Origin: Gemmatimonadales bacterium
GTDB lineage: Bacteria > Gemmatimonadota > Gemmatimonadetes > Gemmatimonadales > GWC2-71-9
Direction of reading: 5' to 3'
Assembly: GCA_038320055.1 (NCBI GenBank)
Contig: JBBQDU010000001.1
Span: 1-46,689, forward strand
Length of the DNA stretch: 46,689 nucleotides
The notes beneath the pieces are model-generated. The model did not search any database, was not told where the DNA came from, and saw only the letters and a program-made list of their open reading frames with translations. The translations under genes were made by a program, and so were the position numbers. Positions 42,360 through 46,689 of the stretch are shown one piece after another. The first letter of the stretch is position 1, and every line of letters begins with the position of its first letter.

Positions 42360-43112
42360 ATGGACATCCTGCGTACGCCCCGCGTCACCCTCATCGCCCG
42401 CCCGCAGTTCCTCGAGCCCGGCCACCTGCCCGTGCAGTGGCATGGGGAGTCGAGCGACGGGGAACGCATCGCCGAGTTCGCCGGCCGGCTCTGCTACATG
42501 AGCCAGCACAATCCGGCGGGGCGGACCACCGCCGAGTACCTGCGGAACATCCTCAAGCAGGGACACGGCTCGGTCTTCGAGCATTCGACCTACGTGATGC
42601 TGATCGAGGGGATCTCCCGGAGCTGCAGCCACGAGCTGGTGCGGCACCGGGCCGGCTGGGGGTACTCGCAGCTCTCGCAGCGGTACGTGGACGAGAGCCA
42701 TGCGGCGTTCGTGATGCCGCCCGCCATCCTGGGCGACGCGACGCTCGAGGCCGAATGGACGGCGCAGGTGGAGGCCGCGCAGTCGGCCTACGTCACCGCC
42801 GTCGAGCGCCTGATGACCCGCTACGAATGGGTGGACGACAAGGTCCACCGCCGGAAGCTGGCGCGCGAGGCGGCGCGGAGCGTCCTGCCCAACGCGACCG
42901 AGGTGAAGATCGTCGCCAGCGCGAACGTCCGCGCCTGGCGAACGATGCTCGAGCTCCGCCTCGGCGAGGGCGCGGAGCTGGAGATTCGACGGATGGCGGT
43001 GGCATGCCTGCGCGTGCTGCTGCGCGAGGCGCCGGCGCTCTTCGACGACTTCGAGATCGTCCGTGCGAGCGACGGCAGCGAGGCGGGGCGTGTGGGGTTT
43101 CACAAGGTCTGA
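42360..43112 (+). CDS. thyX: Flavin-dependent thymidylate synthase
   Basis: 250 aa from ATG 42360. Contains AGRLCY.S, GHGSVFEH, ISRSCSHELVRHR....YSQLSQRY (the ThyX motif) and ARSVLPNATE. It is collinear with actinobacterial-type ThyX as I recall it. Confidence 0.92.
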   Translation: MDILRTPRVTLIARPQFLEPGHLPVQWHGESSDGERIAEFAGRLCYMSQHNPAGRTTAEYLRNILKQGHGSVFEHSTYVMLIEGISRSCSHELVRHRAGWGYSQLSQRYVDESHAAFVMPPAILGDATLEAEWTAQVEAAQSAYVTAVERLMTRYEWVDDKVHRRKLAREAARSVLPNATEVKIVASANVRAWRTMLELRLGEGAELEIRRMAVACLRVLLREAPALFDDFEIVRASDGSEAGRVGFHKV

Positions 43113-43190
43113 GGCAATTTGCGCGAGAGCCGAGACGCTCGGTGGCCTGCAGGGCGACGAAACTCGTGGCACGAAATCTGGTAAAAACTA

Positions 43191-43219
43191 TTGTGCGCAC
43201 GAACGCTTTTTCTTACTTT
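43191..43219 (+). promoter_or_regulatory. Candidate sigma70-type promoter for the ATP-grasp/GNAT/KamA cluster
   Basis: TTGTGC (43191-43196), a 17-nt spacer, then TACTTT (43214-43219), in a 177-nt lower-GC intergenic region. This is a weak pattern match only. Confidence 0.2.
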
Positions 43220-43289
43220 AGCTTCGTCGAAGCAGTCAACTCGTCGCGGCTCGTCTCTCGTGGACGGCCTTTTTTGTAGAGGGGCACCT

Positions 43290-44396
43290 TTGGCAGTTCG
43301 GATCGGACTCGCCTTCAATCTGAAGCCCAGCGCGCCGGCGGACACCACAGCCGGGGCCACGCCCGACTCCCTCTCCCCGGACGAACCCGATAGTCGGGCG
43401 CTCCGCGACGATCTTCCCCAACCCGATCTCTACGCCGAGTGGGACGAGCCCGCCACCATCGATGCGGTGGAGCGCGCACTGAGCACCGTGGGTCGGGTGT
43501 ATCGCCTCGAGGCCAACGCCAGCTTCCCATCGCGCCTCTCGCTCGTCCGCCCGGACTTCGTCTTCAACATCGCGGAAGGCCTCTACGGCCCGAACCGCGA
43601 GGGACACGTCCCCGCCATCTGCGAGTTCCTCGGCGTCCCGTGCCATGCCTCCGACCCGCTCACCCTCGGCCTGGCCCTCGACAAGCGGCGCGCCAAGGAA
43701 GTGATGTCGTATCACGGCGTGCCCACGGCGCCCTTCGTCCTCGCCAAGAGCCCGGCCGACGCGCGGAACGTCCAGCTCCCCTTTCCGCTCTTCGTGAAGC
43801 CGGCGTTCGAGGGCTCGGGCAAGGGCGTGAGCGTCCGAAGTCTCTGCAAGACCCGGAGCCAGCTCGTCAAGCAGGTCTCGAAGCTGCTCGCGACCTACGC
43901 GGAGCCGGTCCTGATCGAGACGTACCTGCCCGGGCCCGAGTTCACCGTCGCGGTGCTCGGCAACGGCGACGAGGCGCGCTGTCTGCCGATCGTCGGCATG
44001 GACTTTGAAACGTTGCCCAAGGGGGCGCCGCCGATCTACGGCTACGAAGCGAAGTGGCTGTGGGACTCGCCGACGCACCCGCTGGAGATCTTCGACTGCC
44101 CGGCCCGCATTTCCGAAGCCCTGGCCGAGGACGTCCGCGGCGCCGCACTGGCGGCCTACCATGCCCTGGACTGCCGCGACTGGTGCCGCATCGACATTCG
44201 CTGCGACGCCGCCAATCGCCCGATGGTCGTGGAATTGAACCCGCTGCCGGGCATTTTGCCCGACCCGCGGGACAATTCCTGCTTCCCGAAGGCCGCACGG
44301 GCCGCCGGGATAGGCTACGACGAGCTGGTCCGTACGGTTGCCGACATCGCATGGCGCCGGATCAGCGGCCGTTCACTCCTGGCGGAGGTGGCGTGA
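43290..44396 (+). CDS. D-alanine--D-alanine ligase-family ATP-grasp enzyme (paralogue 1)
   Basis: Contains FNIAEG..G..REG..PA..E.LG.P...SD.L......DK...K......GVPT, LFVKP..EGSGKGV, L.E.YL.G.EFTV.VLG, R.D.R.D and VVELNPLPG. The start is uncertain: TTG 43290 (preceded by GAGGGG; it would give LAVRIGLAFNLK, decoded as an initiator Met), or ATG 43191, which would add 33 poorly coding residues. Confidence 0.78.
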   Translation: MAVRIGLAFNLKPSAPADTTAGATPDSLSPDEPDSRALRDDLPQPDLYAEWDEPATIDAVERALSTVGRVYRLEANASFPSRLSLVRPDFVFNIAEGLYGPNREGHVPAICEFLGVPCHASDPLTLGLALDKRRAKEVMSYHGVPTAPFVLAKSPADARNVQLPFPLFVKPAFEGSGKGVSVRSLCKTRSQLVKQVSKLLATYAEPVLIETYLPGPEFTVAVLGNGDEARCLPIVGMDFETLPKGAPPIYGYEAKWLWDSPTHPLEIFDCPARISEALAEDVRGAALAAYHALDCRDWCRIDIRCDAANRPMVVELNPLPGILPDPRDNSCFPKAARAAGIGYDELVRTVADIAWRRISGRSLLAEVA

Positions 44397-45406
44397 TGAA
44401 GGTGGCGATCCTGTACGATGCCGGCAGCGACGAGTGGAGCCCGCAGGACGTGGCGGCAGTCGTGGGCAATGTCCACGAGGTGCGCGACGTCCTCCGGCGG
44501 CGGGGGCACGAGGTGGAGCTCCTTCCGGTCCGCCTCGGTGATTTCCGCTGGCTGGGCCGGGTCCGCCGGGCCGACCTCGTCTTCAATCTCTGCGAGGGGA
44601 TCAACGGCCACGCCAAGTACGAGGACCTGGTCGTGGGCACCCTCGAGCTGGCGGGCGTCCCGTTCACCGGCTGCCGCACCTGGCCCACCACGATCTGCCA
44701 TCGGAAGCACGTCGCCAACACGCTGCTCTCCGCGGCCGGCCTCCCGGTCCCCGCGTTCGTGCTGGCCCAGGCCAACAAGACGCCCGCCGAATTCCCGCTG
44801 CCGGCCATCGTCAAGCCTTCCGCTGAGGACGCCAGCGTCGGCATCGACAACGGGGCCGTGTGCACCTCCAAGCGGGCGCTCAAGAAGCGGGTCGCCCAGA
44901 TGCTCGAGCAGTTCGACGAGGTCCTGGTGCAGGAGTACGTGGCCGGACGCGAGTTCAATGTGGGGTTCGTCGGCCGACGGATGCTCCCGATCGCCGAGAT
45001 CCGGTTCGACGGGATGCCCGACGGATCGTGGCCCATCGTGAGCTATGCCGCCAAGTGGATACCCGGGAGCCCCGAGGACGTGGGGACCCAGCCGGTCTGT
45101 CCGGCCGAGGTACCCGTCGAGCTGGCCAAGCGGATCGGGGAGATCGCGCGGGAGGCCTGGGTGCAGATGTCGGGCGCCGAGGGATATGGCCGGGTGGACC
45201 TCCGGGTCAACGAGGAAGACCGGCCCTACGTCCTCGAAGTGAATCCGTGTCCGGATCTCTCGAGCAACGCCGGCCTCGCTCGCATGGGCCGCGCTTTCGG
45301 CTGGAGCTACGACGACCTCGTCATGCAGATCGTGGACGAGGCCCTCATGCGTGCCCAGCGCCACAGCGCCGCCGCCGCCCTGGTCAGTGGGGTGTCGGCC
45401 GCGTGA
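44396..45406 (+). CDS. D-alanine--D-alanine ligase-family ATP-grasp enzyme (paralogue 2)
   Basis: 336 aa beginning MKVAILYDAG. Contains FNLCEGINGHAKYEDLVVGTLELAGVPFTG, HRK, AIVKPSAEDASVGI, LVQEYV.GREFNVG, GYGRVDLR and YVLEVNPCPDLS. The ATG overlaps the upstream TGA (TGATG). Confidence 0.85.
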   Translation: MKVAILYDAGSDEWSPQDVAAVVGNVHEVRDVLRRRGHEVELLPVRLGDFRWLGRVRRADLVFNLCEGINGHAKYEDLVVGTLELAGVPFTGCRTWPTTICHRKHVANTLLSAAGLPVPAFVLAQANKTPAEFPLPAIVKPSAEDASVGIDNGAVCTSKRALKKRVAQMLEQFDEVLVQEYVAGREFNVGFVGRRMLPIAEIRFDGMPDGSWPIVSYAAKWIPGSPEDVGTQPVCPAEVPVELAKRIGEIAREAWVQMSGAEGYGRVDLRVNEEDRPYVLEVNPCPDLSSNAGLARMGRAFGWSYDDLVMQIVDEALMRAQRHSAAAALVSGVSAA

Positions 45407-45894
45407 GCGGCACGCTCACCCTGCCGTCGATCCGGAACCTCACGGCGGCCGATCGGGGCCGCGTCGAGGCCATCAGCCGTGCGGTCGGCCTCTTCCGCCC
45501 CGACGAGATTGCCGTCGCCCTGGAGGTGTTCGAGGGCGCGGTGGCCGGCTCGCCCGACTATCTCGCGCTCGGCGCCGACCACGACGGGCGCCTCGCCGGC
45601 TGGATCTGCTGGGGCCCCACCCCCTGCACCCTCGGCACCTTCGATCTCTACTGGATGGCGGTGGACCCGGGGCTGCACGGCGCCGGCGTCGGCACCGCCC
45701 TCCTGCACGCCATGGAATCCCGCCTCGCCGGCCTCGCCCGACTGGTCGTCGTAGAGACCGCCGGACGGCCGGACTACGGGCGCACCCGCGACTTCTACGA
45801 GGCGCGCGGCTACCGGCCGGTGTCCCGCATTCCCGATTTCTATGCTCCGGGCGACGATCAGGTCGTCTACGTGAAGTCCCTTTCGGACGGGTAG
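45403..45894 (+). CDS. GNAT-family N-acetyltransferase
   Basis: 163 aa. The acetyl-CoA-binding motif A region is LYWMAVDPGLHGAGVGTALLHAME, followed by FYEARGY. The GTG start overlaps the upstream TGA (GTGA). Confidence 0.85.
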   Translation: MSGTLTLPSIRNLTAADRGRVEAISRAVGLFRPDEIAVALEVFEGAVAGSPDYLALGADHDGRLAGWICWGPTPCTLGTFDLYWMAVDPGLHGAGVGTALLHAMESRLAGLARLVVVETAGRPDYGRTRDFYEARGYRPVSRIPDFYAPGDDQVVYVKSLSDG

Positions 45895-45898
45895 CGTC

Positions 45899-46689
45899 AT
45901 GGAGACCTGGCAGGAAGTCCTCAAGAGCAACTCGATCAAGTCGCTGGAAGCGCTCGCCGCCAAGTTCGGGGCCGAGCACTTTCCCGATCTCGACCGCCTG
46001 CGTCAGGCGGCCGAGAACTTCGAGTTCCGGATCTCGCCGGCGATGGTCGACCTCATCAAGTCGCCCGACGATCCCATCTGGCGGCAGTACGTGCCCACCG
46101 TCGAGGAGCTGGACATCCGGGACGGCATCGTCGACTCGCTCAACGAGGACGCCGACAGCCCCGTGCCCAACATCACGCACCGCTACCCCGACCGGGCGCT
46201 GTTTCTGGTCTCGCCGGTGTGCGCGAGCTACTGCCGCTTCTGCACCCGGCGCCGCAAGGTGGGCGACCCGGAGAAGATCCCCATGTCGCAGTTCGAGAGC
46301 GCCTTCCAGTATCTCGAGCAGCACACCGAGATCCGGGACGTCATCATGTCCGGCGGCGACCCGTTGCTGCTCAACGACCGACGGCTCGAGGCGATCCTCA
46401 CCCGGCTCCGCGCCATCCCGCACCTCCAGATCATCCGGATCGGAAGCCGTGTCCCGTGCCACCTGCCCGAGCGGATCACGCCCGAGCTGACCACCATGCT
46501 CAAGCGCTTCCACCCGCTCTTCATCAACACGCATTTCAACCACCCCGACGAGCTGACCCCGGCCGCGGTGGCCGGCCTGGGCCGGCTGGCCGACGCGGGC
46601 ATCCCGCTCGGGTGCCAGACCGTGCTGCTCAAGGGCGTCAACGACGACCCGGCGGTCATGAAGGAGTTGATGCAACGGCTGCTGATGGC
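45899..46689 (+). CDS. kamA: Lysine 2,3-aminomutase family radical-SAM/PLP enzyme (KamA/AblA-like), 3'-truncated by the window edge
   Basis: This ORF is missing from the supplied track because it has no stop in the window; I translated it by hand. It reads METWQEVLKSN...ITHRYPDRALFLVSPVCASYCRFCTRRRKVG (CxxxCxxC at 46220-46243), DVIMSGGDPLLL, IPHLQIIRIGSRVPCHLPERITPEL, HPLFINTHFNHP.E.T, ADAGIPLGCQTVLLKGVNDD..VMKEL. By memory it is closely collinear with Clostridium/Bacillus KamA. It starts 4 nt after the GNAT stop. Confidence 0.9.
   Translation, partial: METWQEVLKSNSIKSLEALAAKFGAEHFPDLDRLRQAAENFEFRISPAMVDLIKSPDDPIWRQYVPTVEELDIRDGIVDSLNEDADSPVPNITHRYPDRALFLVSPVCASYCRFCTRRRKVGDPEKIPMSQFESAFQYLEQHTEIRDVIMSGGDPLLLNDRRLEAILTRLRAIPHLQIIRIGSRVPCHLPERITPELTTMLKRFHPLFINTHFNHPDELTPAAVAGLGRLADAGIPLGCQTVLLKGVNDDPAVMKELMQRLLM

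Follow-up and report, generated by a model that had tools for sequence, protein, structure and literature searches.

Organization of the operon

The DNA analysed here (hereafter, the window) is a stretch of 46,689 nucleotides (nt) from a Gemmatimonadales bacterium (contig JBBQDU010000001.1 of assembly GCA_038320055.1). Its 3′ end is occupied by a cassette of four genes on the plus strand, encoding two ATP-grasp ligases with the fold of D-Ala-D-Ala ligase (Ddl), a small N-acetyltransferase of the GNAT family, and a KamA-family radical SAM 2,3-aminomutase. The first ligase paralogue, AG1 (43290–44396; 368 amino acids [aa]), runs from a TTG start codon to a TGA stop codon at 44394–44396, and the second, AG2 (44396–45406; 336 aa), from ATG at 44396–44398 to TGA at 45404–45406. 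The acetyltransferase, GNAT (45403–45894; 163 aa), starts with GTG at 45403–45405 and ends with TAG at 45892–45894. The aminomutase, KamA (45899–46689), starts with ATG at 45899, and the first 263 of its approximately 374 codons lie in the window. AG1 and AG2 are paralogues with 33% identity.

A first-pass annotation, made from the letters of the window, had described four same-strand genes joined by TGATG and GTGA overlaps and a 4-nt gap and running off the window edge, and all of these coordinates were confirmed. The AG1/AG2 junction is TGATG, with one base common to stop and start; the AG2/GNAT junction is a GTGA overlap; and KamA begins 4 nt behind GNAT and stays open to the end of the window. 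The Pfam and NCBIfam assignments (two Dala_Dala_lig_C ATP-grasp proteins, one GNAT, and one KamA-family radical SAM protein) also agreed with the gene identities proposed in that annotation, that is, two Ddl-like ATP-grasp paralogues, a GNAT, and a KamA-type enzyme. AG1, AG2, GNAT, and KamA constitute one operon. The annotation had further suggested extending the contig to see the 3′ neighbours; in a relative 96% identical to the window (L001), KamA is complete (374 aa) and the next gene is a convergent EF-G-like gene, so that the operon consists of four genes with KamA as the last. The spacer between GNAT and KamA is 4 nt in the window (45895–45898) versus approximately 10–170 nt in most Gemmatimonadales relatives (e.g., L001:9509–9627), so that such close coupling of KamA is not general.

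Conservation, gene-order variants, and fusions of the cassette

Related loci (n = 257) were fetched and tallied by tblastn with the proteins of the window. The arrangement AG1-AG2-GNAT-KamA on one strand, which the first-pass annotation had proposed to trace in other genomes, was kept at 166 of them. About one-fifth of the related loci lacked the cassette KamA. The four cassette families were adjacent at more than 190 of the 257 loci. The cassette is found in more than 10 bacterial phyla and in some archaea. The 80 loci with 72–96% identity to the window were all from Gemmatimonadales or Gemmatimonadota metagenome-assembled genomes (MAGs), and within Gemmatimonadota the order was kept down to 45% AG2 identity, always behind thyX. 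An alignment-seeded search recovered the same order in Aminicenantes, Ignavibacteria, Bacteroidota, Planctomycetota, Acidobacteriota, Kryptonia, Geobacteraceae, and Desulfuromonadaceae, and the cultured species Desulfuromonas versatilis (L258; AP024355.1, 3147668–3151300) carries the cassette with overlapping genes.

Permuted orders were also observed. KamA-AG-AG-GNAT occurred at eight loci, in Humidesulfovibrio, Desulfovibrionaceae, gammaproteobacterial MAGs, Myxococcota, and Pirellulales. At six loci of Bathyarchaeia (L167, L172, L174, L175, L181, and L203), AG1-KamA lay on the strand opposite to AG2, and at least at L167 (4758–5267) a different GNAT family adjoined KamA, replacing the GNAT of the bacterial cassette. 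A further nine loci had KamA-AG2 variants. In a deltaproteobacterial group KamA and AG2 were adjacent, and at four loci of this group AG1 was located approximately 4–5 kb upstream. Fusion proteins that kept the gene order were found for AG1+AG2 (about 660–790 aa; P0147, P0156, P0158, and P0171) and for AG2+GNAT (about 500–540 aa; P0127, P0129, P0134, P0173, and P0196). Because the arrangement is conserved over many phyla, survives permutation, and is accompanied by fusions, the four genes appear to act as one unit, as the first-pass annotation had concluded from the overlaps. The cross-phylum conservation, the permuted orders, and the fusion proteins exclude adjacency by chance.

When all open reading frames (ORFs) of at least 70 aa in the 80 most diverse loci were clustered, the only families common to the neighbourhoods were the ligases (71 loci), KamA (55), and GNAT (45). 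The next family was RecG, reflecting lineage synteny. No conserved transporter, regulator, or precursor peptide was found beside the cassette among these ORFs. The searchable literature contained no characterised cluster of the same composition, in agreement with the first-pass annotation, which had known of none.

Two ligases of the Ddl fold with altered pockets

Both ligases matched Pfam Dala_Dala_lig_C (PF07478), AG1 with an E value of 2e-32 and AG2 with 5e-27, and their only solved relatives by sequence were Ddl enzymes (best E value for AG1, about 1e-28). The AlphaFold model of AG2 had a mean confidence (pLDDT) of 92.8, and the best 50 matches listed in a Foldseek search of this model against the PDB were all D-Ala-D-Ala or D-Ala-D-lactate ligases, with TM scores of 0.71–0.88 and identities of 17–26%. 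The N-terminal domain of AG1 contains a low-complexity insert, and the protein is 44–54% identical across phyla. Both proteins thus share with Ddl and with the VanA, VanB, and VanG ligases, which make D-Ala-D-lactate or D-Ala-D-serine, the three-domain fold, the residues for ATP and Mg binding and phosphoryl transfer, and PF07478 membership. They differ from these enzymes in their scores, which were 140–166 bits against cutoffs of at least 243. Specifically, AG1 scored 165.9 and 139.5 bits and AG2 scored 140.3 and 120.1 bits with the Ddl models NF002378 and TIGR01205 (cutoffs 243 and 245.65 bits, respectively), and both were far under the cutoff of every NCBIfam Ddl or Van model. A further difference from the Ddl and Van systems is that no cell-wall genes lie near the cassette.

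The residues of Escherichia coli DdlB were mapped onto 83–84 orthologues each of AG1 and AG2. Equivalents of Lys97, Lys144, Glu187, Lys215, Arg255, Asp257, Glu270, and Asn272 were kept in both ligases, which, judged by this pattern, are probably active and use an acyl-phosphate mechanism. In both, Tyr216 is replaced by Trp, His63 is invariably Glu, and Glu15 appears to be lost; the GGxSxExEVS motif at the DdlB N-terminus is missing as well. AG1 has kept Ser150, Gly276, and Ser281 but has Cys for Leu282 and Ala for Glu15, whereas AG2 has Ala for Ser150, Asp for Gly276, Ala for Ser281, Gly for Leu282, and Asp or Ser at the position of Glu15. The set that binds D-alanine (Glu15, His63, Ser150, Tyr216, Ser281, and Leu282) therefore reads A, E, S, W, S, C in AG1 and D/S, E, A, W, A, G in AG2, consistently over the orthologues. 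The sub-cutoff hidden Markov model (HMM) scores and the replaced D-alanine-binding residues rule out a true D-Ala-D-Ala ligase function for either protein. The substrate pockets of AG1 and AG2 are predicted to differ both from that of Ddl and from one another, a pattern that fits two distinct ligation steps.

The AG2 family comprised 832 clusters (50% identity) at E < 1e-30; this breadth was taken from a representative library and the alignment-seeded locus searches, as the first protein search with AG2 listed only relatives with at least 76% identity. The database labels on these relatives are generic, either "ATP-grasp domain-containing protein" or "D-alanine--D-alanine ligase". In one protein (P0174), an N-terminal DUF3109 domain is fused to an AG2-type ligase.

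A short aminomutase of the lysine type and a GNAT of its own kind

The KamA of the window contains VCASYCRFCTRRR, IGSRVP, NTHFNHP, and GVNDD, and its CxxxCxxC cluster motif is CASYCRFC; the motifs quoted in the first-pass annotation (CASYCRFCTRRR, GSRVP, NTHFNHP, and VNDD) are all present in the translation. The fragment, which is truncated by the window end, passed the NCBIfam model of the KamA family (TIGR00238; 223.1 bits, cutoff 199.2) and scored 298.8 bits with AblA (TIGR03820), 261 bits with glutamate 2,3-aminomutase, and 182.7 bits with EpmB (TIGR03821). Its full-length orthologue in L001 (9628–10752; 98% identical) scored 433.4 bits with AblA (cutoff 525.4), 380 bits with the glutamate model, and 225 bits with EpmB (cutoff 369.3), passing only the general KamA-family model (TIGR00238; 274.3 bits). 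The cassette KamAs of four other phyla reached 472–482 bits with AblA, and one deltaproteobacterial type reached 527.8 bits, above the cutoff. In the five other lineages ranked, the order of the models was always AblA, glutamate, arginine, and EpmB. The HMM assignment suggested by the first-pass annotation was therefore borne out in that AblA is the best specific model, but not to the level of the AblA equivalog cutoff.

In an alignment of the L001 KamA to Clostridium subterminale lysine 2,3-aminomutase (PDB 2a5h; E value, 4e-110), the CxxxCxxC motif and the Arg-rich stretch behind the cluster were kept, as were the epsilon-ammonium binders Asp293 and Asp330 and the pyridoxal phosphate (PLP)-binding Lys337, whose positions lie past the end of the window. 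At the position of the zinc ligand Cys268 the orthologue has Asp, and it stops short of the C-terminal region in which the other three zinc cysteines lie. With a length of about 360–385 aa, the cassette KamA is a short form, and in sequence it is a distinct short clade of the lysine-type 2,3-aminomutases. The view that it resembles AblA or lysine 2,3-aminomutase and not EpmB was upheld by the scores (299 vs 183 bits for the fragment and 433 vs 225 bits for the full-length orthologue) and by the retained Asp293, Asp330, and Lys337. The gene for elongation factor P (EF-P), efp, was found near the cassette at one of the 257 loci, at a distance of 7.5 kb, which rules out a link of the cassette with EF-P. 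Thus, neither an EpmB-clade aminomutase beside epmA or efp, nor an unconserved arrangement, nor a match to a characterised cluster was found, which were the three computable outcomes among those that the first-pass annotation had named as fatal to its proposal.

The GNAT passed the gathering thresholds of Pfam Acetyltransf_7, _1, and _10 (including PF00583 and PF13508); the three scores obtained were 36.8, 35.3, and 26.8 bits, against cutoffs of 27, 20.7, and 23.6 bits. Its NCBIfam matches at E ≤ 1e-3, namely rimI (30.2 bits, cutoff 86), PRK03624, and AAC(6')-Ia, were all far below cutoff. No AblB model was among them, which, provided that the library contains one, rules out an identification of the GNAT as AblB; the "AblA/AblB-like pair" of the first-pass annotation is thus an analogy and not a homology. 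The sole solved relative was PDB 2r7h (E value, 7e-25; approximately 45% identity), an uncharacterised structural-genomics protein titled "Putative D-alanine N-acetyltransferase of GNAT family", and homologues of 2r7h (best match, 53%) belong to cassettes of the KamA-AG-AG-GNAT order. The homologues of the GNAT bear generic labels ("GNAT family" and "RimI-like").

Loci without the cassette KamA and a link to polyamines

The loci that lacked the cassette KamA fell into three types: nine had another KamA-family gene, nine had polyamine genes, and approximately 24 had AG1-AG2-GNAT alone. The first type comprised close Gemmatimonadales loci (L019:9620–11038, and L026, L029, L044, L047, L048, L051, L063, and L067), in which the KamA slot was taken by a different KamA-family protein of 472 aa with the motif CPQYCGHCTR and approximately 30% identity. 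This protein passed no specific NCBIfam model; the slot seems to have been taken over by a non-orthologous aminomutase. Since a different KamA-family gene fills the same slot, the pathway seems to require the product of a 2,3-aminomutase.

At the nine loci of the second type, in Deltaproteobacteria, Thermodesulfobacteriota, and Nitrospinota, AG1-AG2(-GNAT) lay directly behind genes for a deoxyhypusine-synthase homologue (PF01916), an agmatinase (PF00491), and a pyruvoyl arginine decarboxylase (ADC; PF01862). These were L164, L176 (2837–7449), L198, L204, L205, L209 (3899–9510), L238, L249, and L251; a third ATP-grasp gene was additionally present in L204, L209, and L251, and in L176 the genes overlap by 4 nt from the agmatinase through AG2. 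KamA and the homospermidine genes co-occurred at none of the tallied loci. SpeY-SpeB-pyruvoyl ADC genes constitute a route to free homospermidine, and the work that established them makes no mention of AG1/AG2-type ligases (PMC13625781). The nine loci share an operon of this kind with AG1-AG2(-GNAT), whereas the window has KamA and no polyamine genes.

The coupling of the ligases to homospermidine genes in some lineages indicates an amine-conjugating module, rather than the β-lysine-specific ligase pair that the first-pass annotation had envisaged. The ligase pair forms the invariant core, with the amine-supplying gene as the exchangeable part. As judged from these gene associations, the pair probably conjugates a long-chain cationic amine as the nucleophile, and β-lysine would be that amine in the window and in most lineages. 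In L244 (6153–7898) and L246 (6187–7908), a 581-aa protein in which a GNAT-like domain is fused to PF00850 (Hist_deacetyl) lies inside the cassette, and the same fusion is located just upstream of the D. versatilis cassette (L258:2831–4576). PF00850 includes the acetylpolyamine amidohydrolases, and the fusion hints at a reversible acetylation step.

The third type included Gemmatimonadota loci with thyX-AG1-AG2-GNAT and no aminomutase (L074–L077, L079, L080, L082–L084, L086, L088, L090, L093, L094, L097, and L141). In L077, L082, L090, and L094, the genes behind GNAT are unrelated and encode outer-membrane-type, substrate-binding, or other proteins, and the GNAT of the L082-type loci is longer, at about 170–210 aa.

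A predicted pathway for an N-acetylated β-lysine conjugate

The cassette is a real, uncharacterised, and widespread pathway. We consider it somewhat probable (roughly 55%) that it makes a small cytoplasmic N-acetylated pseudopeptide or conjugate containing β-lysine, and the product envisaged in the first-pass annotation is plausible. The gene structure, its conservation, the fusions, the patterns of residues, and the assignments to families are observed, whereas the substrates, the product, and its role are all deduced from them. In the proposed pathway, KamA, a short AblA-like radical SAM and PLP enzyme, would convert L-lysine to β-lysine, as its conserved cofactor- and substrate-binding residues suggest. 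AG1 and AG2 would each form one amide bond via an acyl-phosphate intermediate, in keeping with the mechanism of their family, and GNAT would acetylate the leftover free amino group with acetyl-CoA. The lack of a conserved transporter and the vertical inheritance beside thyX throughout Gemmatimonadota favour a core cytoplasmic metabolite, for example a compatible solute or a polyamine-like cation, over an exported secondary metabolite.

Parts of this scheme have counterparts in known systems. As in the AblA/AblB route to the osmolyte N-epsilon-acetyl-β-lysine, an AblA-like aminomutase, for which AblA is the best specific model, adjoins an acetyl-CoA-dependent GNAT. Unlike that route, the cassette has a GNAT (163 aa) that does not match an AblB model, a short KamA that is below the AblA cutoff and lacks the clostridial zinc motif, and, as obligatory partners, two ATP-grasp ligases, which have no counterpart in the Abl pathway. 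Ngg, a GNAT fused to an ATP-grasp ligase, makes N-acetylglutaminylglutamine amide. The combination of a GNAT and an ATP-grasp ligase for an N-acetylated peptide is common to both systems, and the bifunctional architecture of Ngg has a parallel in the natural fusions of AG2 and GNAT. In contrast to Ngg, the cassette fusions have the reversed domain order and there are two ligases instead of one, both of the Ddl type; in addition, the genes are separate in the window, no AsnO-like amidotransferase was among the conserved neighbours, and the cassette has an aminomutase supplying a β-amino acid. By analogy, the cassette may work like a hybrid of the AblA/AblB route and Ngg-type synthesis. The EpmB/EpmA system likewise combines β-lysine production by a KamA-family aminomutase with a subsequent ATP-dependent ligation, but the cassette aminomutase is not EpmB-like, its ligases are ATP-grasp enzymes and not paralogues of lysyl-tRNA synthetase (LysRS), and efp is not adjacent. 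ATP-grasp ligases that accept amines are known, such as glutathionylspermidine/trypanothione synthetase and MfnD; these enzymes join carboxylates to polyamines or other amine nucleophiles, the kind of reaction predicted for AG1 and AG2.

Several points weigh against the β-lysine conjugate. Among the six lineages scored, KamA orthologues fell short of the AblA equivalog cutoff in five, so that lysine specificity is deduced from the residues. The NCBIfam scan gave no AblB match to the GNAT, on the assumption that the library contains an AblB model. The loci with AG1-AG2-GNAT alone have no aminomutase or polyamine gene nearby, and some of them are truncated contigs. No carboxylate partner could be identified for either ligase, and a protein or another macromolecule is a possible acceptor. 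A description of the cassette is absent from the searchable literature, and an earlier bioinformatic mention, among ATP-grasp/GNAT amidoligases, is possible.

Alternatively, AG1 and AG2 could resemble RimK or tubulin-tyrosine ligase (TTL) in action and place β-lysine, or a polyamine at the KamA-less loci, on a protein carboxylate or lysine, with GNAT capping the amine. Such a protein modification, if real a novel counterpart of EF-P β-lysylation or hypusination, is in our estimation unlikely. The KamA/EpmB family supplies β-lysine for EF-P and homologues of deoxyhypusine synthase act in hypusination, so that both amine-supplying sets have precedents among translation factors; some members of the ligase family have weak TTL-family Pfam matches, the only named resemblance of the GNAT is to the protein acetyltransferase RimI, and the cassette is present in both bacteria and archaea. 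On the other hand, no conserved candidate target gene lies by the cassette in the 80 diverse loci, the single efp noted above is the only one nearby, and the closest relatives in sequence and structure are all small-molecule ligases. Furthermore, deoxyhypusine-synthase homologues accompanied by agmatinase and pyruvoyl ADC yield free homospermidine (PMC13625781). A role in the envelope, in which the Ddl-like ligases would build a peptide containing β-lysine or polyamine for peptidoglycan or another envelope polymer, is quite improbable. Its attraction lies in the Ddl fold and the Ddl-type annotations, in the covalent polyamine–peptidoglycan links that occur in some bacteria, and in the title "putative D-alanine N-acetyltransferase" that the depositors gave to 2r7h, a homologue of the GNAT. 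This role is difficult to reconcile with ligases that miss the Ddl cutoffs by a wide margin and carry substitutions at D-alanine-binding positions, with neighbourhoods that have no mur, fts, or other envelope-synthesis family in common, and with the presence of the cassette in Bathyarchaeia, which to our knowledge have no peptidoglycan.

An AblA/AblB-like pair with unrelated or ordinary Ddl paralogues that are adjacent by chance would agree with the closeness of KamA to AblA and with the annotation of the adjacent aminomutase–acetyltransferase pair Pcar_1401/1402 of Pelobacter carbinolicus as ablA/ablB osmolyte genes (PMC3543383). That pair may itself be part of a cassette in which the ligases were overlooked. 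Given that KamA varies around an invariant ligase core, that AG2+GNAT and AG1+AG2 fusions occur, that the association outlasts gene-order permutation in distant phyla, and that the GNAT is not AblB-like, we regard this explanation as very improbable. Membership in the KamA family is what speaks for EpmB-type EF-P β-lysylation or for a clostridial kamA lysine fermentation, and we give either hardly any weight. Of the KamA-family models, EpmB scored lowest (183 and 225 bits; cutoff 369), and neither efp nor epmA is adjacent; with only the ligases, GNAT, and KamA common to the neighbourhoods, there is no conserved kamDE/kdd/kce/kal set, as read from the clustering and not from a search directed at those gene names.

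If the cassette does make an N-acetylated β-lysine conjugate, a large share of the phyla found in soil, sediment, and groundwater would make a metabolite that nobody has described. β-Lysine would then have a new fate besides osmolyte acetylation, EF-P modification, antibiotics, and fermentation, and enzymes of the D-Ala-D-Ala ligase fold, mislabelled "D-alanine--D-alanine ligase" by genome pipelines, would have a new class of substrates. The chemistry of β-lysine and that of polyamines would be joined via one ligase pair. More tentatively, and in our view doubtfully, AG1-AG2(-GNAT) as a whole might be an unrecognised amine-conjugation module, using β-lysine or homospermidine/agmatine, for new N-acetylated pseudopeptide cations or solutes or for a new post-translational modification, with a leader attenuator in Gemmatimonadales. 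Being small and self-contained, and occurring in a cultured Desulfuromonas, the cassette is open to direct experimental testing.

The leader of AG1 and other features of the loci

The TTG start of AG1 at 43290 is inferred from the sequence and is backed by a conserved GTAGAGGGG/GTAGGAGG box located 6–13 nt 5′ of the start codon; in distant relatives, the AG1 equivalents have ATG at the position matching the TTG of the window. The 105 nt 5′ of AG1 are AT-rich and highly conserved. In this leader (43183–43289), the boxes CTATTGTGC ... TTTCTTACTTTAG are followed by a hairpin and TTTTTT immediately 5′ of the ribosome-binding site. The promoter-like AT-rich boxes (43183–43221, plus strand) consist of AAAAACTATTGTGC, with its TTG at 43191, and, after approximately 17–20 nt, TTTCTTACTTTAG. 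Over 18 close and 33 more diverse Gemmatimonadales loci, their conservation far exceeded that of the remaining thyX-AG1 spacer. A strict sigma-70 scan gave no promoter. The boxes may resemble a promoter of the Bacteroidota type (TTG / TAnnTTTG).

The GC-rich hairpin with its T-run (43248–43275, plus strand; GGCTCGTC / GACGGCC stem, then TTTTTT) is a candidate attenuator. It sits in a 5′ leader of approximately 64 nt, 14 nt ahead of the AG1 start, and was the sole terminator-like site found in 42800–46689. The hairpin and T-run are kept in distant Gemmatimonadales relatives despite changed sequence: when pairs were counted, 82% of the cells were paired, four of the seven pairs had changed on both sides (compensatory changes), and none of 500 shuffles was as good. 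An Rfam search of the leader gave chance-level matches only and no family. From its form and conservation, the hairpin with its T-run could serve as a transcription attenuator or constitute a new kind of cis-regulatory leader.

The genes upstream of the cassette in the window encode a 3-hydroxyacyl-CoA dehydrogenase, a DUF2231 protein, a DUF116 protein, an FAD-linked oxidase, and ThyX, and are unrelated housekeeping genes. In D. versatilis, a set of DUF2126, Alpha-E, and circularly permuted ATP-grasp genes (L258:8934–14468, minus strand) lies convergently behind the cassette; it is a separate predicted amidoligase system that is probably unrelated to the cassette.

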